Origin: Planctomycetota bacterium
GTDB lineage: Bacteria; Planctomycetota; SZUA-567; H5-PLA8
Assembly: GCA_038227875.1 (NCBI GenBank)
Contig: JBBRPR010000086.1
Location: 1 to 31,118 of the forward strand
Length of the DNA stretch: 31,118 nucleotides
Reading direction: 5' to 3'
In this document: positions 1 to 31,118 of the stretch, piece after piece
Position numbering within the stretch: the first letter of the stretch is position 1
Layout of the letters: each line of letters begins with the position of its first letter
Program-made: the position numbers and the translations under genes
Notes under the pieces: generated by a model
Told to the model about the DNA's origin: nothing
Databases searched by the model: none
Seen by the model: the letters and a program-made list of their open reading frames with translations, nothing else

Positions 1-138
1 CCCTGCAAAGTTCGAGCTTTGCGGGGACCTGCTGTTTTTATAACCGTCCGAAATCTTCTGCGGCCTACTGACCGCATCGGCGCAGATTAGCGCGAGAATT
101 ACTGCTGTCTACGATGCAATACTGTGAGAGCCCTGACA
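1..138 (-). mobile_element. Left copy of a 138-bp terminal inverted repeat; probable transposon or transposable-phage end facing outward
   Basis: Exact reverse complement of 30979..31116. Ends ...GAGAGCCCTGACA at 138 (5'-TGTCAGGG on the minus strand) and abuts CCGGG. It interrupts a PAS-domain ORF. The repeat is certain; the identity as a mobile-element end is inferred. Confidence 0.8.
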
Positions 139-2205
139 CCGGGTGCGCCGTAGCGATGGCTTGTGGCGTTGGCTTATGATCCGTGGCGTGCCGATTCTGG
201 ATTCGACAGGGAGAGCCAAAGAATGGACCGGTTCCACTCTCGATATCACGGATCTCAAAAACGCTGAATTAGCGTTTAAGGCAAGCGAAAGCGACTTTCG
301 CTTGCTTGCCGAGGCAATGCCACAAATTGTCTGGGCAACGCGGGCTGATGGCTGGAATACCTACTTCAACAAACAGTGGGTTGACTATACGGGAATGTCC
401 CTGGAAGCCACGGGCACGGCTGGAATATCCCCTTTCACCCGGATGATCGCAAACGAGCCTGGGACGCGTGGCAGGGCGCAGTACAGGGAAATTCTGAATA
501 CTCGCTCGAATGCAGACTGAAACGGCACGACGGCGCATATCGCTGGTGGTTGATTCGCGGTGTTCCGGTACGCGACTCCAACGGAAATATACAACGATGG
601 TTTGGAACGTGCACTGATATTGAAGACCTTAAACAGAGTCAGCAAAAAGCGTTGACGACGCAAGCATTATTAGCTGAAGCGCAACGTATTGCGCACATCG
701 GAAATTGGACGTGGGACTCAGTAAACAACGTGGTCTGGTGGTCCGAGGAGTTATTCAATTTGTATGGAAAGACTCCTGGATCGGCACCACCGACGTACGA
801 AGAGGATCAACGAAATTACACGACAGAAAGCGCCGCGCTTCTGAGCCGCAAGGTGATTGAAGCGTTGCGGGAGGGCAAGTCCTACGAAGTCGAGTTGGAA
901 TTGAATCAAAAACTATCTGGCCCCGCACGGTGGGTGTCCGCAAGAGGCGAGGCTGTTCGGGATGCAAGCGGGAAAATCATTGGGCTCCGCGGAACCGCGC
1001 AGGACATTACCGATCGCAAACTGGCGGAGATCAAACGCAATGTCCTGGAAACGCAGCTGCTCCAAGCGCAAAAAATGAAGGCGATTGGAACGCTGGCCGG
1101 CGGCATTGCGCACGATTTTAACAATATACTTTGCATCATCATGGCCAATACGGCAATGCTGGATGCGGCCCTGGACGAGGGGCAGAAAGCAAAACAATAT
1201 TTGCATCCGATTATAAAGGCTGGCGAGCGGGCCAGCGATCTGATTAAGCATCTACTGGCCTTCGGCAGTCCCAAGGATCTCAAAAAGACTGTCGTGAACT
1301 TTGACAGCTCGATTGACAACTCGCTTAAGCTATTGCGCGCAACAATTCCCTCTTCCGTGGCGATTAACGTACGACTGGGCACGGGCAAGGCCGGAATACT
1401 CGCTGATGAAACGCAAATTCACCAGGTTGTAATGAATCTCGTCACCAATGCATGGCAGGCAATCCCCAAAGGAACGGGCACGATCGACATTTTCACGGAC
1501 GTAATTGAAACGGGTTCCGAAACCACGCCTACCGGCGAGACGCTTCCGCCGGAGCGCTATGCCCGTTTACAGATTCATGACAACGGGCACGGCATACCAA
1601 AGGAGATGATCGGGCGTGTATTCGAACCTTTTTTCACCACAAAAGGCGTTGGCGAAGGAACAGGGCTGGGATTGGCAGTGGTTCATGGCGTTACTCTAAA
1701 CCATGGTGGATCAATTGCGGTTGAGAGTGAAGTGGGCGTTGGCACAACTTTTAAATTGCTTTTTCCAATCCTATCAGAGGCGACTTCCAGCTCCGAGCCC
1801 CATCAAAAATCCGCGTCTCCGACGCCTGCAATAAAAACGGGCGCTCGGTTGTTTGTAGTTGATGACGAGGTCGACTTGCTCGCCCTCATTCAAGAATGTC
1901 TGTCGAATCTCGGATACACCATCGTCGTGTTTAACTCCCCGGAAAGCGCACTGTCGGTGCTTCGAAATATGGATGAGAGATGCGATCTGCTGATAACGGA
2001 CCTGTCGATGCCAGAGATGACGGGGCTTCAGTTGATCGAGGAAGTGCGCAAGTTGCGGCCGTCGTTACCCGCGATCATGGTCACGGGTAATGCTACTCCC
2101 CAAACGCGGTTATCCACTGAGCGACTGGGCGTCCAACTACTGCCAAAACCATGGAGGATTTCTTCGCTTAATGGCGCAGTTCAAAATGGATTGAAGTTAA
2201 GTTAG
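139..2205 (+). pseudogene. 5'-truncated, frameshifted multi-PAS hybrid histidine kinase (PAS/PAC-HisKA-HATPase-REC)
   Basis: Begins mid-PAC motif (RVRRSDGLWRW) at the repeat junction. A frame change at about 404-408 joins TGMSLE to SHGHGWNIPFHPDD. H-box GGIAHDFNNIL, N-box QVVMNLVTNA, G boxes DNGHG and GTGLGL, F-box FEPFFTTK, receiver motifs VVDDE, DLSMP and LPKP. Confidence 0.88.
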
Positions 2206-2220
2206 CGAGTCAAATTGAGA

Positions 2221-2257
2221 GCCCCATCTCCATTATCCTTAAAAATGGAGATGGGGC
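2221..2257. terminator. 14-bp perfect inverted repeat between convergent genes; probable bidirectional terminator
   Basis: GCCCCATCTCCATT-N9-AATGGAGATGGGGC. No clear U-tract. Confidence 0.55.
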
Positions 2258-2292
2258 ACCTTCCAACGCTTCGTTGAGCTGACAGGCGTTGC

Positions 2293-2805
2293 TCAGTGCG
2301 CCGCCTTCGCGCTCTCCGCCGTGTCCTTCAGTTCGCCCTGCGAGAGGATGCAGTCGGCGTCCAGGAGGATGATCACGTTCTTGCCGACCTTGGCCATGCC
2401 GAGGATGAACTCGGTCGAGATGTTGACTCCGAATTCCGGGGTCGCTTCGATCTGGTCGGCGTTCACGTTCAGCACTTCCGAGACCGTGTCGACGATGATG
2501 CCCATCGTGATGATCGAATCCCCGCGCTGCACCTGGACGACGACGATGCAGGTCCGTTCGTTGTCGTCTTTGGCGTCGAAGTTCAGTTTGCGGCGCAGGT
2601 CCAGCACCGCGATGACCTTGCCCCGCAGGTTGATCACGCCGCGGATGTAATCCGGCGCGCGCGGGACGCGGGTGACGTTCATGATGCCGATGATCTCCTG
2701 CACCTTCAGGATCTCCAGGCCGTAAAGCTCCCCGGCGAGGTTGAAGGTCAGGTAGCGTCCGGCGCGCGCGGTCACTGCACTCTTTTCACTGGCTTTGGTG
2801 CTCAT
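2293..2805 (-). CDS. cheW: Chemotaxis coupling protein CheW
   Basis: YLTFNLAGELYGLEILKVQEII...ITRVP-like VTRVPRAPDYIRGVINLRGKVIAVLDLR...GIIVDTVSEV. AAGGA RBS favours ATG 2805 over 2814. Confidence 0.95.
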   Translation of the reverse strand: MSTKASEKSAVTARAGRYLTFNLAGELYGLEILKVQEIIGIMNVTRVPRAPDYIRGVINLRGKVIAVLDLRRKLNFDAKDDNERTCIVVVQVQRGDSIITMGIIVDTVSEVLNVNADQIEATPEFGVNISTEFILGMAKVGKNVIILLDADCILSQGELKDTAESAKAAH

Positions 2806-2842
2806 GCGATTCATTCCTTTCGGGAAGACTCCGCCTTGGCTT

Positions 2843-4588
2843 CTAGAAGCCGCTCAGTTCCTCGTCCGTCAGCGGAATCGCCACGGATGCCTTGCGCTTG
2901 CCGTTGCCATTGCTCGTGCCATTGACGTGCCCCTTCGCGTGTCCGTTTAGCGTTGCGACGCGGTTGGTCGGTACGTGGACCGCGCTGGCCTTGCGGGCGG
3001 CCTTGGGCGCGGGCGCGTAGTGAGACTTCGCCGGCGCGACGGTCTGCAGCTTCTCCGCGCGCTGCGGAGGAGGCGGCGCGCTTCCGGCTTCGCTGGAGCC
3101 GCGGATCAGCTTGATCAGCGCGTTGACCATGTCCTGGAGCTCGCGGGACTGCGCGGAGAGTTCCTCGCTGGCGGAAGCCGACTCTTCGGCGTTGGCGGCG
3201 TTGGACTGGGTCACCTTGTCCATCTCACTGACGGCCGTGTTGATCTGCTCGACGCCCTTCGACTGCTCGCCGCTGGCGGCGGCGACTTCGCCGATCAGCT
3301 GCTTGACCTTGTTGGCTGCATCAACGGTGTTGGAGAAGCTCTTGGCGATCTCCACTTCGACGGCGCGCTTGAGGATCTCGGAGACCTCCGACGAAGCCTT
3401 CACGCCGTTTTCGGCATTGCGCTGGGATTCTTCGATCAGCGCCGCGGTGTTCTTCGCCGCTTCGGCTGAACGCTGGGCGAGATTGCGGACCTCTTCGGCG
3501 ACGACGGCGAAACCCTTGCCCGCTTCACCGGCTCGAGCGGCTTCGACGGCGGCGTTCAAGGCCAGCAGATTGGTCTGGAAGGCGATCTCGTCGATGGTCT
3601 TGACGATCTTGGCTGTCTGGTCCGCGGAGCTCTTGATCTTCTGAATCGCATCGTTCATGCCGCCGATGCGCGCGGTCAGTTCGCCACCCATTTTACGCGT
3701 GGTGTTCTGGCCGGCTTCCGCGGCGGAACTGGCTTCATCGGAGACCGCGCGTGCAGCGCGGGCGTTGTCGGCGTTCTGGCGGGTCATCGAGGCCATTTCT
3801 TCCAGCGACGCCGAGGTCTCTTCGAGACTCGACGCCTGTTGGCTGGCACCGGACGCCATGCTCTGGCTGGACTGCGCCACCTGCGTGGCGGCCGCGGCAA
3901 CCTGTTCGGCGCTCGAGCGCAGGGTCATGGCGATGGCGTTGAGCGATCCGTTGACGTTGCGGGTGATCCCGAATGCGGCGACGCCGCCCAGGGCCAGGGC
4001 CACAAGCAGCGCGATCAGGATGCCCCATTCGGATTCAGAGAGCAAATTCGCGATGCTCACTGAACTGGCGTTGCCAACGTCCTTGTTGTATTCGGAGAGC
4101 GCGTCGATGGCGGACATGTATCCGGAAAATGCAGGCATCACTTTGGATTTCCAGACCAACAGACCTTCGGTGTTCTTCTCCGCGTGGATCAAGGCGATCA
4201 CTTCGTTGTAGGCAAGCAGGTACGCAGCTCGTTTGGATTTAAGCGTCTCGTAAAGTTCCTTGTCGCGCGCTTCAAATATCGTCTGGGCGTATTTATCCAG
4301 GATGGCTGTCGTTTTGGTGCGGCCTTCATCGTAGCGGCGTTCGCAATCCGCCAGTTCCGCTTTGTCCACTGCAGTGAACATGGAATGAAGCGCCATGAGG
4401 TTATCTTTCACCTGTGCGCGAGCCTCGGACATCAAGTAGACGCCGGGCAGACTGTCTTCCGTGATGCTGTGGGCAATCTTGCTGATCGAGATCAACCGCG
4501 AGCGCGCAAAAATTCCCAAGGCAACTGTGATGGCCAGCGTCAACGCGAAGCCGCACATTATTTTCTTGCCCACCGTAAAATTACTCAT
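2843..4588 (-). CDS. Methyl-accepting chemotaxis protein (TM, four-helix sensor, TM, signalling domain, C-terminal tether)
   Basis: Hairpin tip [44 protein letters not shown]. Two hydrophobic segments. Low-complexity linker ending [18 protein letters not shown] before ATG 4588. Confidence 0.95.
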
Positions 4589-5220: not shown

Positions 5221-6657
5221 TCACTGCGCATTCCCAAGTCGGATGGGCGGGTTGGTCTGGTAGAGCACCGGGCCTCGAACCATCGACTTGAGCAGGCGCG
5301 GCATATCGTTCGTTTCGGGAGGAAGATCGGCGGGTTCGATCGATTTGATTTCGACGCCTTCGATTTCCTCGTTGAACCAGATGAGCGCGAGGTCCCGGGC
5401 TGGGATCTGCGCGGGGTACTCGTCGACGATCGTGATCTGGCCGTTGAGGGTTTGAACGACGTAGCGGCCGAAGACGTAGTTGACGATTGTCGGGATGTTC
5501 TTCCCGACGTCGTCGATTTTGACGACTTTGTAACCCGAGCGGCGAAACTGCGTGTTGGAGTTCTTGTCGAACCACTGCACGCAGGTGCCACCGTTGCCTT
5601 TGGCGTCTTTCAAAAGGAGTTGCGACGAGACCGTGACGGCCACCGGGAGTTGATCGATCGCGACGGGCAGACGAAGGCCGGTGTTGGTGTTGAATTCCGG
5701 CGTCAAGCGCGCAGGGCGTTCGCCATCGGCGGCGTGCCAGGTCCACGTGGAGAGAACCATGTCCTGGAGATCGGCGGGCGGTCCCTTTTCGAACGTCCAC
5801 TTGCGGTAGAGCTTTGACGGCGCAGCCGGTGCGGTAGTCAAAACCGCTGCAGGCTGTTTCAGGAGATACCAACCGCCGGCTGCTACACAGAGCAACGCGA
5901 CAGCCCAAAGGGATTTTGCGGCGGCGGAAGAACCGCGCGCAGGCGCTTTCGCGCGGAGGCTCGAGCGCTGAAGCTGTTTGAGCAGCCGCGGTGCCAGGTG
6001 CGGTGGCGCGCGGTGACCGGAGTGAAACAGATCGCCGAGACCCTGTTCATTGAGCAGGGGGAGCGCGGCGCCGAATCCGGCTGCGCCCAGGCCGACACGC
6101 AGATGGCCGAGGATCTTCTTGATGCGCGCCGAGACGGCCTGCTGCGTGATCGAGAACGTCTTGGCCAGCTCGCCCTGGCTCAGGCCGCCACCAAAGTGGA
6201 GCGCCAGGAGCTGGCGGTCGGTTTCGGGGAGCGCGTCGACCAGATGGCGCAGGCCTTCGCGCGTGTCCTGATCTTCAGCGCCGACGACGGCCGAGCGGTC
6301 GGCGCTGGCGGCCTCGCCGGGGTCGGATTCATCGATGGACTGCATGGCGTGCCTCTTTCGTTTGCGGATATGGCGGAGACTTTCGCGCGCGACGATACGC
6401 AGGAACCACGAGCGCGGCGTACCGTCACCCCGGTAGTCGGCGACTTTGGCCCAGACGCGGATGAGTGCTTCCTGCACCGCCTCCGAGGCATCGTCGGCGT
6501 TTCCGGTGATGTGAAAGGCGAGACTCGACGCGCTGTGTTCGTGCCGTTTGACAAATTCGACAAAAGCATCCGTGTCGCGCGTGGAGGCCGCGCGATTGAG
6601 CAGTTCTTCGTCCGCCAGGTTGGCGTGCACGGCCACGGATTCGTTCACGGGTGTCAT
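5221..6657 (-). CDS. ECF sigma factor with a long C-terminal extension (TM helix plus extracytoplasmic domain)
   Basis: Region 2 (DASEAVQEALIRVW...PRSWFLRIVARE) and region 4 (LPETDRQLLALHFGGGLSQGELAKTFSITQQAVSARI), then TM LWAVALLCVAAGGWYLL and about 200 aa of beta-rich sequence. Start uncertain (6657 or 6675). Confidence 0.85.
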   Translation of the reverse strand: MTPVNESVAVHANLADEELLNRAASTRDTDAFVEFVKRHEHSASSLAFHITGNADDASEAVQEALIRVWAKVADYRGDGTPRSWFLRIVARESLRHIRKRKRHAMQSIDESDPGEAASADRSAVVGAEDQDTREGLRHLVDALPETDRQLLALHFGGGLSQGELAKTFSITQQAVSARIKKILGHLRVGLGAAGFGAALPLLNEQGLGDLFHSGHRAPPHLAPRLLKQLQRSSLRAKAPARGSSAAAKSLWAVALLCVAAGGWYLLKQPAAVLTTAPAAPSKLYRKWTFEKGPPADLQDMVLSTWTWHAADGERPARLTPEFNTNTGLRLPVAIDQLPVAVTVSSQLLLKDAKGNGGTCVQWFDKNSNTQFRRSGYKVVKIDDVGKNIPTIVNYVFGRYVVQTLNGQITIVDEYPAQIPARDLALIWFNEEIEGVEIKSIEPADLPPETNDMPRLLKSMVRGPVLYQTNPPIRLGNAQ

Positions 6658-6665
6658 CTCTGGAG

Positions 6666-7529
6666 TTACAAACACACTTTCAACGCGTCGTGCGTGGATT
6701 CAAATTCGTTCGCGTGAAGTTCAGGCGCAGCGGCCACTGAACCGGCCGTGAGCGGATCGAGCAGCACCAACTCCGGCGCCAGCGGCACGGTCTCGCCGGC
6801 TACGATGCGCACGGCCAGCGTCACGGACAATCCCGCGGCGGTGTACGAGCCCGGACAGAGCTGCGAGATCGGACAGACGTTGCCTGCGTCGAGAATCTGG
6901 CTCAACACGCCCAGCGCATACGGCGGGAAAACGGCCGCGTAGCGGCGCATCAGCCGCGCGAAGGCGGAAACGAAGTCCGGAACCGAGGCGTAGGCGTCGT
7001 GACCGAGCAGTTCGGCCAGCGAGGGTCCGCGCGGATGAAAAACCAGCGCCGCCCCACCCCAGCCCACGGACATCGGTGCGACGACCGGAATCCCCTGCTC
7101 GCGCGCGGTGGCGTGGAGCGCCCGAATCGCCAGCGGCGAGCGAAAGTCGATGGTGTCGACGATCACGCCGGCTCCGTGGAGCAGACGCGCAGCGTTGTCT
7201 TCATCGAGGAACTTAGGGACCGATTCGATCTGCGCGTGAGGATGGATGGCGCGGAGGCGTTCGGCGACGGCGTCGGTCTTCGAGCAGTCGACGTCAGAGT
7301 TGCGGAAATTCTGGCGGTTGAGATTGTGGGCTTCGACCCGGTCGCCATCGATCAGGCGGATGTGAGTAAAGCCCGTGCGCAGCGCGGCTTCGGCGATGAC
7401 TCCGCCGAGCCCGCAACCGGTGATCACCAGCGTCGTATGCCGCAAGCGCTTCTGCAAAGCGCCGGGGATGAAGGCCTGATTGCGGGCCGTCAGTGTGTTG
7501 TAGGCGTTGTCCTCAATCATGGTGCGCAT
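6666..7529 (-). CDS. ThiF/MoeB/HesA family (E1-like) adenylyltransferase
   Basis: VITGCGLGG, LIDGDRVEAHNLNRQ, K-x-D and IVDTID motifs. No CxxC zinc pairs seen. Confidence 0.88.
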   Translation of the reverse strand: MRTMIEDNAYNTLTARNQAFIPGALQKRLRHTTLVITGCGLGGVIAEAALRTGFTHIRLIDGDRVEAHNLNRQNFRNSDVDCSKTDAVAERLRAIHPHAQIESVPKFLDEDNAARLLHGAGVIVDTIDFRSPLAIRALHATAREQGIPVVAPMSVGWGGAALVFHPRGPSLAELLGHDAYASVPDFVSAFARLMRRYAAVFPPYALGVLSQILDAGNVCPISQLCPGSYTAAGLSVTLAVRIVAGETVPLAPELVLLDPLTAGSVAAAPELHANEFESTHDALKVCL

Positions 7530-7620
7530 CTCCCTTTAGGGGTGTGGGCCGTTCTACACTGCTGACCGTTGCGATAAGCGGGCTACAAACGGAAAGTCGA
7601 AATATTTTGGAACTTCTTCT

Positions 7621-8397
7621 TTAATGGGCGGTCCAGCCGCCATCGACCAGGATCGTGGTGCCGGTAATCAAGGATGCGGCGGGCGAGGCCAGGAAGACGA
7701 CGGCACCGGCCACGTCCATGGGCTCGCCGATGCGGCCGAGTTTGATCATCGAGAGGATGTGCGCGCGCGACGCGGGGTTGGAAAGCTCCTCGGCCGTGCC
7801 GGGCGTGCGGATAAACGTCGGCGCGACGTTGTTGACGGTGATGTTGTGCTGGCCCCATTCGACGGCCATGCATTTGGTCAGGTGGGCGATGCCGGCCTTG
7901 GTCATGCAGTAGACCGACTCCATCGGCAGCGCGACGGCGCCGGCCTGTGAGCCAAGGTTGACGATGCGGCCGTACTTCTGCGCGATCATGACGCGGGCGG
8001 CTGCCTGGCTGACAAAGTAGGTGCCTTTCAGATTCACAGCGACGATGCGGTCAAAGTCCTCTTCCTTGACGTCTTCTGCCGGATCGCTTTTGCCGATGCC
8101 GGCGTTGTTGATCAGGATGTCCAGCCGTCCGAAGTGCTGCGCGGTCTTCTCAACGCCGGCGCTGACTTCGTCGAGCGACGTGACATTCATCTGCAAGGGC
8201 AGCGCGCGGCGGCCGAGGGCTTCGATCTGCTTCACGAGTTCGCCGCCGGATTTGACGTCGCGCAAACCCAACGCAATGTCGGCTCCGGCGTGCGCGCAGG
8301 CCAGCGCAATGGCGTTGCCGAGGCCTCGGGCGGCGCCGGTGATCAGCGCGATCTGGCCGGTTAGATTGAAGCGTGGGTATTCGTTGGCGGTGGTCAT
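7621..8397 (-). CDS. Classical SDR oxidoreductase (gluconate 5-dehydrogenase/KduD/FabG-like)
   Basis: TGAARGLG, INNAG, YCMTK catalytic motif, VDGG. AAGGA RBS before ATG 8397. Confidence 0.92.
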   Translation of the reverse strand: MTTANEYPRFNLTGQIALITGAARGLGNAIALACAHAGADIALGLRDVKSGGELVKQIEALGRRALPLQMNVTSLDEVSAGVEKTAQHFGRLDILINNAGIGKSDPAEDVKEEDFDRIVAVNLKGTYFVSQAAARVMIAQKYGRIVNLGSQAGAVALPMESVYCMTKAGIAHLTKCMAVEWGQHNITVNNVAPTFIRTPGTAEELSNPASRAHILSMIKLGRIGEPMDVAGAVVFLASPAASLITGTTILVDGGWTAH

Positions 8398-30314: not shown

Positions 30315-30494
30315 GGTCTAAACGTACTTCATCCGTGGCCTTCTGAAAACTGAATACGACGGAGCGTGGCTCGGCAATGATTAAGGCGCGTGGATTCGCC
30401 AGGTTCAGCCATTGAATCAGTAGCACACCTCTCACATCCCTGTAAAGTCATACCTACACAACAAAAAATTGAGGCCCGTCGCGAAGGAATCTCC

Positions 30495-30978
30495 ATGTCT
30501 CATTCCAAACTCAATCCTCATCCCCGCCTTTACATTACCGCAGAACATCTTCATCGGCTTCACATGCCGGCCGCGAATTCGGCGCTGGAGGCGGCGGAAA
30601 AAATTGTGCGCGCGGATGCGCAGCGGTTGCTCGGAGAATTGAGCATTACGGTCAGTGAGGGCCAGCACAACTGGCACTTGCTCCGCGCTCGCGCCATGCA
30701 GCGCAACGTGCTGGCGCTGCTGACGGAATTCATACGCACGGGCGACGCGCGCTTTCGCGACGCGGTCCTGGCGTGCGTCAAACAGATGGCGGAATGGGAA
30801 TACTGGTCGTGGATTACCTGGCGCAAAGGGGACGCGCGGCCGGAAGCGATCTTCGATCTGTCGTATGGCGAGAATTCAACCACGTTGGCGGTCGCGTTTG
30901 ATCTTCTCGTTGAGACACTGAATGAGGCCGAACGCGATCTGTTCGTTCAGACGGCGCAACGCCGCGCATTCAAGCCGT
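30495..30978 (+). pseudogene. N-terminal part of a heparinase II/III-like (DUF4962 / alpha-toroid lyase-like) protein, cut by the terminal repeat
   Basis: AAGGA RBS plus ATG 30495, HPRLY motif, DLSYGE...LAVAFDLL...L...ER helix pattern. The reading frame runs into the repeat after RAFKP. Confidence 0.7.
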
Positions 30979-31118
30979 TGTCAGGGCTCTCACAGTATTG
31001 CATCGTAGACAGCAGTAATTCTCGCGCTAATCTGCGCCGATGCGGTCAGTAGGCCGCAGAAGATTTCGGACGGTTATAAAAACAGCAGGTCCCCGCAAAG
31101 CTCGAACTTTGCAGGGAC
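30979..31118 (+). mobile_element. Right copy of the terminal inverted repeat; probable transposon or transposable-phage end facing outward
   Basis: Starts TGTCAGGGCTCTCACAG after GCCGT. 30979..31116 is the exact reverse complement of 1..138. Ends in a 30-nt near-palindrome. Confidence 0.8.

Follow-up and report, generated by a model that had tools for sequence, protein, structure and literature searches.

A planctomycetal contig bordered by two inverted copies of a multicopy, probably Tn6049-like transposon that duplicates 5 bp without a detectable pentamer preference

Layout of the window

The window analyzed here, a stretch of 31,118 nucleotides, is the entire contig C86 of G000, the draft genome of a Planctomycetota bacterium (176 contigs, 9.34 Mb, 88% complete). 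The same transposon end, here called end A, lies in inverted orientation at both of its borders. The explanation that accounts for the whole locus, and that is considered very probable, is that a 30.8-kb segment was cut at two inverted copies of a multicopy, Tn6049-like transposon that duplicates 5 bp of its target and has no detectable pentamer preference. Within this explanation, the copies, their ends and pairing, the duplication length, the split genes, the lack of CGG recurrence and the start of a DUF6431 gene beside end A are direct observations. The features at the two borders are as follows.

1 to 138, minus strand: end A terminus (138 nt; the DUF6431-proximal, left end of the element), copy 1, with the tip ...CCCTGACA at 138, from the comparison of copies
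139 to 143, no strand: target-site duplication CCGGG of insertion 1, with the partner copy on C34 beside end B
144 to 520, plus strand: 3' part of a PAS-domain sensor gene split by insertion 1, from a PAS_3-like match and the joined frame
30390 to 30978, plus strand: 5' part (196 codons and 1 nt) of a heparinase II/III-like gene split by insertion 2, with the rest on C7:145-1526
30974 to 30978, no strand: target-site duplication of insertion 2, GCCGT on the plus strand and ACGGC read outward, with the partner on C7 beside end B
30979 to 31118, plus strand: end A terminus (140 nt), copy 2, inverted with respect to copy 1, with the tip TGTCAGGG... at 30979

The junction letters are those given by an earlier reading made from the sequence only. 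Positions 131 to 138 read CCCTGACA and are followed by CCGGG at 139 to 143. At the right border, GCCGT at 30974 to 30978 is followed by TGTCAGGG at 30979 to 30986, and the reverse complement of 30974 to 30986 is CCCTGACA followed by ACGGC. Read outward, both contig ends terminate in ...GAGAGCCCTGACA. The inverted repeat comprises positions 1 to 138 and 30979 to 31116; the repeat tool extended it to 142 nt at 99% since both sides continue with CGG. Repeat families lie mostly at contig ends across the G000 assembly, with 136 to 141 nt retained, and the contigs of a second draft genome that carries end A are named "k141". The retention of about 140 nt of repeat, together with this naming, indicates that C86 stops where the assembler met a repeat exceeding its word size. 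The transposon bodies of both copies are outside the window, beyond the contig start and the contig end.

At the left junction, residues 1 to 29 encoded by positions 146 to 520 match positions 59 to 87 of the 89 positions of the PAS_3 profile (18.7 bits, below the Pfam cut-off of 25.6). Since the match starts at profile position 59, the PAS_3-like stretch begins midway, at the junction. After removal of one CCGGG, a 237-aa open frame spans the join with C34, and the PAS motif is rebuilt. A second frame change was observed further into this gene (window 331 to 640), near 410 to 425, where one frame reads ...WVDYTGMSLEATGTAG and then a stop and the other continues GWNIPFHPDDRKRAWDAW...RWWLIRGVPV into a second PAS domain; the cause is either decay of a pseudogene or a mistake in the assembly.

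At the right junction, C7 carries the 459 codons that remain of the heparinase II/III-like gene after the 196 codons and 1 base in the window. The gene is uninterrupted in three relatives (G002, G010, and G006), in which the two halves are colinear and share a single reading frame, separated by exactly one codon, as a 5-bp duplication predicts. These homologues serve as an empty site at the protein level and, with the restored frame, confirm the 5-bp duplication at the right junction.

Copies, ends, and pairing

End A occurs in 10 copies in G000, 9 at contig ends and 1 in the interior of contig C135. The left end A of the window is identical to 5 other contig ends and 96 to 98% identical to 4 further copies. 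One additional end A, with the flank CCTGC, was found in another draft genome. The pentamers that follow ACA at end A are CCGGG, ACGGC, CCATG, CGTGG, GGCGT, CAGAT, CGGCA, GTCGC, CCAAG, GCACA, and CCTGC. The clustering of all 352 contig ends of G000, together with a boundary listing, gave a class of 11 members, end B, with the terminus ...GTGATTCCCGACA (...TTCCCGACA).

Outward flanks that are reverse complementary over exactly 5 nt were found in 5 of the 88 pairs of end A and end B, with about 0.09 expected, and no 5-mer match was found in 692 pairs of end A with 11 other repeat-end classes. Two further A/B pairs, C54-C50 (CAGAT) and C42-C174 (6 bp, GTCGCT), fell outside the 200-nt range of the pairing script or had a 6-nt repeat instead of the 5-mer that it used. 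In all 7 pairs the direct repeat abuts TGT/ACA, with a length of 5 bp in six pairs and 6 bp in one. Two sequence variants exist for each end, and in 7 of 7 pairs the A variant corresponds to the B variant. When one repeat copy was removed from each of the six 5-bp pairs, an open frame of 179 to 823 aa ran across every join, longer than when no base or one base too many was removed. The shortest of these frames (C54-C50, 179 aa) sits in a hairpin loop, and the frames of the 6-bp pair C42-C174 cannot distinguish the removal of 0 bases from that of 6. The shared target pentamers, the matching variants, and the restored frames together indicate that end A and end B are the two ends of one element.

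The partners of the window are C34 at the left and C7 at the right. The two pentamers differ and each has its own partner contig, indicating two separate insertions, as had been proposed from the sequence alone. The duplication length of 5 bp proposed at the same time agrees with six of the seven paired sites, with the restored frames, and with the colinear homologues of the right-junction gene. Seven contig joins of G000 are now possible across the transposon, including those of the window to C34 and C7.

The similarity of the two ends is limited to about 7 of the first 8 nt, with the tips TGTCAGGG and TGTCGGGA. Neither a 25-bp inverted repeat nor a longer terminal repeat common to end A and end B was found, and no internal repeated binding sites common to both ends were detected at the thresholds used. 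With at least 11 copies that have near-identical ends and fall into two sequence variants, the element has recently expanded in G000, splitting ordinary genes.

Three side observations concern these sites. The C54/C50 copy has as its target the loop, ATCTG, of a perfect hairpin, aaaaaaaccgggcgc/ATCTG/cgcccggttttt, with A and T runs flanking it (around positions 2660 to 2675 of locus L013); this target looks like a bidirectional terminator. The end A in the other draft genome, which is labelled Terriglobales (L011, positions 1 to 139), shows no visible difference, by reading, from the variant in the window; either a recent transfer between phyla or a mis-binned contig of the same community would account for it. 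Lastly, two larger clusters of contig ends in G000, cluster 0 (...GGGACGCTTCC, 19 ends) and cluster 1 (...GGGACATCCGC, 17 ends), gave 12 pairings via 8-bp duplications. These clusters represent the opposite ends of a second insertion sequence, more abundant than the transposon, and allow 12 more contig joins.

Target preference

The sequence-only reading took the CGG at the center of both window pentamers as the target signature of phage Mu (N-CGG-N within N-Y-S-R-N), with the reservation that chance was possible. Fifteen independent sites were available: 7 paired, 4 with end A only (1 of them in the other genome), and 4 with end B only. In the background of G000 (59.6% G+C), 6.0% of pentamers have a central CGG/CCG, 17.7% fit N-Y-S-R-N, and 0.79% fit CYSRG. 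The counts were as follows.

Central CGG/CCG: 2 of 15 sites (binomial P = 0.23); 0 of 13 without the two window sites
N-Y-S-R-N: 3 of 15 sites (binomial P = 0.51); 1 of 13 without the two window sites
CYSRG: 1 of 15 sites; 0 of 13 without the two window sites

The signature thus did not recur at the 13 further sites, and the reservation was justified: the central CGG common to the two window sites is chance. No wider consensus was evident by eye around the 7 rebuilt sites. The targets are scattered over ordinary genes and a terminator loop and are not res or att sites. A strong pentamer rule is excluded by the 15 sites, which are compatible with a weak bias. Among the junctions collected here, the 5-bp length was upheld in most cases and no enrichment of CGG or YSR was seen. 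A Mu target signature would have been a mechanistic fingerprint, but with all junctions counted nothing of it is left.

Identity of the element

The longest copy of end A, on C54, keeps 252 nt of a slightly diverged sequence. Read inward, nucleotides 187 to 252 from its tip encode the 22 aa MQIICKSPGGVNAYLSKPGMLV. This peptide is identical at 15 of 22 positions to residues 1 to 22 of a DUF6431-family homologue, a protein recovered with a DUF6431 query (E = 9e-10), and at 11 of 22 positions to residues 3 to 24 of the DUF6431 protein of G007, a genome of the same family (E = 2e-5). No exact match to the peptide was found among the DUF6431 matches listed (120 of 171). The 252 nt of C54 can also be aligned with contig C351 of G007, starting at C351 position 56; identity is 169 of 245 positions, and 0 of 500 shuffles reached the score. 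The significance holds for the noncoding 186 nt alone. The two sequences have in common a TGTC tip, CGTAGACAG at positions 26 to 34, and two hairpins.

The gene order on G007:C351 is a DUF6431 gene, a transposase gene with HTH_32, rve (49 bits), and Mu-transpos_C (34 bits) domains, a gene for an AAA_22/ExeA-type ATPase, and a cysteine-rich open reading frame (ORF 4) that follows the ATPase gene and runs off the contig. By comparison with this relative, the element in G000 likely uses a transposase of the rve plus Mu-transpos_C class with an AAA+ helper, and it would be a Tn6049-like transposon of about 4 kb with its own transposase and ATPase genes. Of the MuA-like transposase proposed by the sequence-only reading, the broad class thus stood in the G007 homologue; it was not seen in the element itself, and the Mu target signature was absent.

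An ATPase gene may also be linked to end A at C135. There the terminal 117 nt of end A adjoin an IS21-family element, and on the other side of the latter lies a 46-aa ATPase fragment that is 100% identical to P0001, a 274-aa ExeA-type ATPase encoded on contigs of at most 4,014 nt. P0001 matches AAA_22 at 85 bits and is 73% identical to the G007 ATPase. In the public sequencing run X1, the summed word depth was about 360 for the ATPase piece and about 800 for end A, and that of the unique DNA between them was 10 to 16. The locus is present in the runs X1 and X3 to X6. Logan contigs of four runs show that the ATPase gene and end A on C135 continue in other molecules, and the X1 contigs extend the ATPase past the break; no listed Logan record bridged both the ATPase piece and end A.

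A tblastn search of G000 with the four G007 proteins returned only the C135 ATPase fragment, weak hits to unrelated transposases, and an ORF-4-like remnant on C122. The rve plus Mu-transpos_C transposase was not found in G000, whose assembly omits the element body. Scanning metagenome contigs at the protein level with P0001 gave no confirmed match, and an exact 25-mer of end A had one hit among species-representative genomes, at a contig end. A hairpin with a T run at 100 to 140 nt from the tip had been considered as the terminator of an outward gene with an apparent upstream promoter; this candidate was dropped, the stretch being the antisense of the DUF6431 start.

Two loci touched on above have features of their own. 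The IS21-family element of C135 (L012, positions 140 to 3583) is 3,444 bp long, with IstB at 232 to 996, IstA at 962 to 2470, and tips TGTCAGCGCC, and it lies inside a copy of the transposon studied here; about 1.1 kb of extra DNA with two open reading frames without Pfam hits separates istA from its end. On C122 (L059, positions 3590 to 4324, at the contig end), a 5'-truncated homologue of the G007 ORF 4 (60% identical) directly follows a fragment read by eye as the C terminus of a tyrosine recombinase, and about 400 nt upstream of it there is a 12-nt match (GAGAGCCCTGAC) to the end-A tip. This remnant may be a decayed copy.

Related elements

The module of DUF6431, transposase, and ATPase was found in other genomes, in elements of 3.5 to 4.1 kb with 3 or 4 genes. 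A complete genome of the phylum carries a 4,065-bp element in six copies, all six with 6-bp duplications. Another complete genome, G169, carries a 3,790-bp element in six copies, of which two have 6-bp duplications and four have none (L043, L044, L055, and L056), suggesting recombination between copies or nested insertions. Six-base-pair duplications are thus found in the relatives of G374 and G169. The module is also present on plasmids of Cupriavidus necator and Geobacillus, and the NCBI annotation of the Geobacillus homologue is IS481 family transposase. The literature on the module that turned up consisted of descriptions of Tn6049, with nothing on mechanism; for DUF6431, nothing on transposition was found by title. 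The duplication length (4, 5, or 6 bp) seems to vary by lineage, and 5 bp is no hallmark of the family.

In two of these relatives the transposase region is spread over two overlapping frames, at positions 700 to 2434 of G007:C351 (L048) and 6208 to 7768 of G169 (L043). In G169 an HTH_32 part overlaps an rve/Mu-C part; in G007 an open reading frame at 700 to 1545 without a Pfam hit overlaps the one that encodes HTH_32, rve, and Mu-C. The transposase of the G374 element is a single open reading frame of 634 aa. The overlapping frames may reflect programmed frameshifting of the IS3 kind or decay. A CTCAGAT-like motif occurs within about 60 nt of the tips in L045, L043/L044, and L049 (GAGTCTCAGATTC, TCCCAGATTAAAT, TTCTCAGATTAAG, GTCTCAGAATATT, and CCTCAGATTGCG), and end B has GAGTCTCAGATAAAT. 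The motif may be a candidate transposase binding site.

Alternative explanations

Several observations weigh against the explanation given at the outset. One of the seven pairs has a 6-bp repeat, and two end-A and four end-B junctions remain unpaired in the assembly. The element body is absent from the G000 assembly, in which no contig overlaps the inner 130 nt of the longest end A. Searches for the DNA of end A in 40 relatives and in 400 genomes of the phylum did not find it, the latter giving only chance-level hits of 27 to 36 nt, and an exact 25-mer of it had no hits in JGI metagenome contigs. At C135, the ATPase fragment is oriented toward the end-A tip, opposite to the gene direction in G007, and no duplication flanks the IS21-family element that separates the two pieces. 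These features mark C135 as a rearranged locus in which the connection between the pieces is only loose; it supports the link between ATPase and transposon without proving it. The power of 15 sites is also low: a 7-fold bias for CYSRG, the size given for Mu in PMC7350765, predicts about 0.8 sites, and 1 was seen, which is one of the two window sites.

This last point bears on a rival in which the transposase has a modest MuA-like pentamer preference (CYSRG, with a central CGG favored) and the window sites are genuine examples of it. Both window sites fit N-Y-S-R-N and one fits CYSRG in full, two random sites would both have a central CGG/CCG with an a priori chance of only 0.0036, the first base is C at 8 of the 15 sites, and the related transposase has a Mu-transpos_C domain. 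According to PMC7350765, the preference of Mu for CYSRG in vivo is itself no more than about 7-fold, a bias that 15 sites would not exclude, and an earlier "CGG" result for Mu is ascribed there to genome composition. However, the CGG pattern was picked after viewing those same two sites, the 13 further sites are at or below background for both motifs, and the 8 intact duplications of the related elements (TCCAGC, CCGACC, GTTTTG, CCTACC, CTTTCG, GTTTGG, TCATGT, and TGTAGG) have no such core, so a preference of this kind is improbable. Far less can be said for a shifted boundary, which the sequence-only reading had also entertained, with the true tip at CAGGG (CCCTG at the junction) and TGT/ACA coming from the target. 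Its attraction is the resemblance to the ends of the ISAs1 family, which have CAGGG tips and longer duplications. It is refuted by the paired junctions, in which the direct repeats begin immediately outside TGT/ACA at both ends. TGT/ACA is present at all 21 junctions in G000 and at the 1 in the other genome, end B reads TGTCGGGAAT without CAGGG, and the end of the relative also starts with TGTC. Moreover, TGT and ACA, lying at opposite ends, are in inverted and not in direct orientation and therefore cannot derive from a target duplication. This reading is given practically no credence.

The TGTC tips could also be those of a known family with an AAA+ partner. An element of the Tn5053/Tn402 or Tn7 type (TniA/TnsB, TniB/TnsC, and a target selector) would have such tips and strict 5-bp duplications, and the AAA_22-type ATPase and the cysteine-rich ORF 4 of G007 are in keeping with it, as are the inverted repeat TGTCgTTTTCAG... 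and the 5-bp repeats recorded for Tn402 in PMC4739549. Against it, the TniB model gives the G007 ATPase 17.5 bits, below the cut-off of 22.4, the best NCBIfam model for the G007 transposase is IS481, and the G007 open reading frames have no TniQ, TnsA, or resolvase domains. Together with the lack of a 25-bp inverted repeat and the scattering of the sites in ordinary genes instead of res or att sites, this makes the assignment very unlikely. An IS21-family insertion sequence (IstA plus IstB) would likewise have TGTCAG... tips and duplications of 4 to 8 bp, and the IS21-family element in G000 has the tips TGTCAGCGCC.... The gene beside end A, however, encodes DUF6431 and is not istA. Against the IS21 models, the G007 ATPase reaches 20 bits (helper, cut-off 200) and the G007 transposase 65 bits (transposase, cut-off 160), and IstB_IS21 is not among the Pfam hits of P0001; membership in IS21 is accordingly regarded as highly improbable.

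Proposed mechanism and significance

In the proposed course of events, the transposon made staggered cuts 5 bp apart (once 6 bp), which would leave a short direct repeat of target DNA on either side of each copy. Copy 1 split the PAS sensor gene and copy 2 the heparinase II/III-like gene. The assembler then cut the 30.8-kb chromosomal segment at these two inverted copies, keeping the left end (TGTCAGGGCTC...) and leaving the right end (...TTCCCGACA) on other contigs. Elements of this type carry genes for a zinc-finger-like DUF6431 protein, an IS481/Mu-type DDE transposase (helix-turn-helix, rve core, and Mu C-terminal barrel), and an AAA+ ATPase of the ExeA/GspA type, and possibly one more small gene. 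Mu, Tn7, and IS21 use DDE transposases of the retroviral integrase fold with AAA+ partners. By analogy, the transposase would bind the TGT...ACA tips and join the 3' ends to target strands 5 bp apart, and gap repair would produce the 5-bp repeats. The ExeA-type ATPase, like MuB, TnsC, and IstB, probably has the task of capturing target DNA and activating the transposase.

The DUF6431-transposase-ExeA-ATPase module is often met on plasmids and in genomes from several phyla, and its variable duplication length (4, 5, or 6 bp) bears on how the transpososome sets the stagger. A broader proposal is that the module defines an uncharacterized, widespread family of ATPase-assisted transposons the size of insertion sequences (DUF6431, IS481/Mu-type DDE transposase, ExeA AAA+ ATPase, and here the cysteine-rich ORF 4), in which the stagger is set by the lineage and the ATPase and small proteins choose the targets, as in a miniature Mu- or Tn7-like machine. 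This proposal is speculative and is considered rather doubtful.

Comparison with known systems

Phage Mu resembles the element, by way of the relatives of the latter, in its rve-core DDE transposase with a Mu C-terminal barrel and an AAA+ helper; both have TG...CA tips, and PMC7350765 gives a 5-bp duplication for Mu. Mu differs in being a 37-kb phage instead of an element of about 4 kb, in its CYSRG/CGG preference, which is not detectable here, and probably in its ATPase, which is of the ExeA/AAA_22 type in the relatives. The relatives of the element, moreover, duplicate 6 bp or, according to PMC4739549, 4 bp. The element is a transposon of insertion sequence size and not a Mu-like phage, since the related elements are 3.5 to 4.1 kb long with 3 or 4 genes and P0001 is encoded on contigs of at most 4,014 nt. 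IS21 likewise has TGTCAG tips, seen in the IS21-family copy on C135. Its helper is IstB instead of an ExeA/AAA_22 ATPase, and the DUF6431 gene is an addition here. The combination of a two-component DDE transposase and an AAA+ helper in IS21 is described in the abstract of PMC11208146.

The IS481 family has TGT tips and short, variable duplications. Its model (NF033577) is the best NCBIfam model for the transposases of G007 (171.5 bits) and G374 (103.7 bits), but both scores are below the cut-off of 224, and the related elements have, in addition, a Mu-transpos_C domain and genes for DUF6431 and an AAA+ ATPase. Ordinary one-gene IS481 elements are not known to have any of these three.

The closest likeness is to Tn6049, reportedly first described by Van Houdt et al. 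in 2009. According to PMC2864759, Tn6049 is 3.5 kb long and occurs in 12 copies in Cupriavidus metallidurans CH34, with a gspA-like ATPase gene in every copy. PMC4739549 gives 12-bp imperfect inverted repeats starting with TGT and 4-bp direct repeats (for one copy). Tn6049 is also recorded on the Pseudomonas aeruginosa plasmid pHS87a. Like the element in G000, Tn6049 is small and multicopy, with short imperfect inverted repeats that start with TGT and short direct repeats. An element of the same size on a Cupriavidus necator plasmid has the order DUF6431-DDE transposase-ATPase, as does the G007 relative, suggesting by extension from this Cupriavidus relative that Tn6049 proper carries a DUF6431 gene as well. 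The Cupriavidus necator element was considered as Tn6049 itself; the published inverted repeat of Tn6049 was not found there, and it is a relative only. The differences from Tn6049 as published are the 4-bp repeat instead of 5 bp and the tips, TGTGCATAAGCA as opposed to TGTCAGGG/TGTCGGGA. The ATPases of the Cupriavidus plasmid homologues are only about 33% identical, and ORF 4 after the ATPase gene in G007 is a further difference. The element is best filed as another member of this kind, an ordinary transposon.

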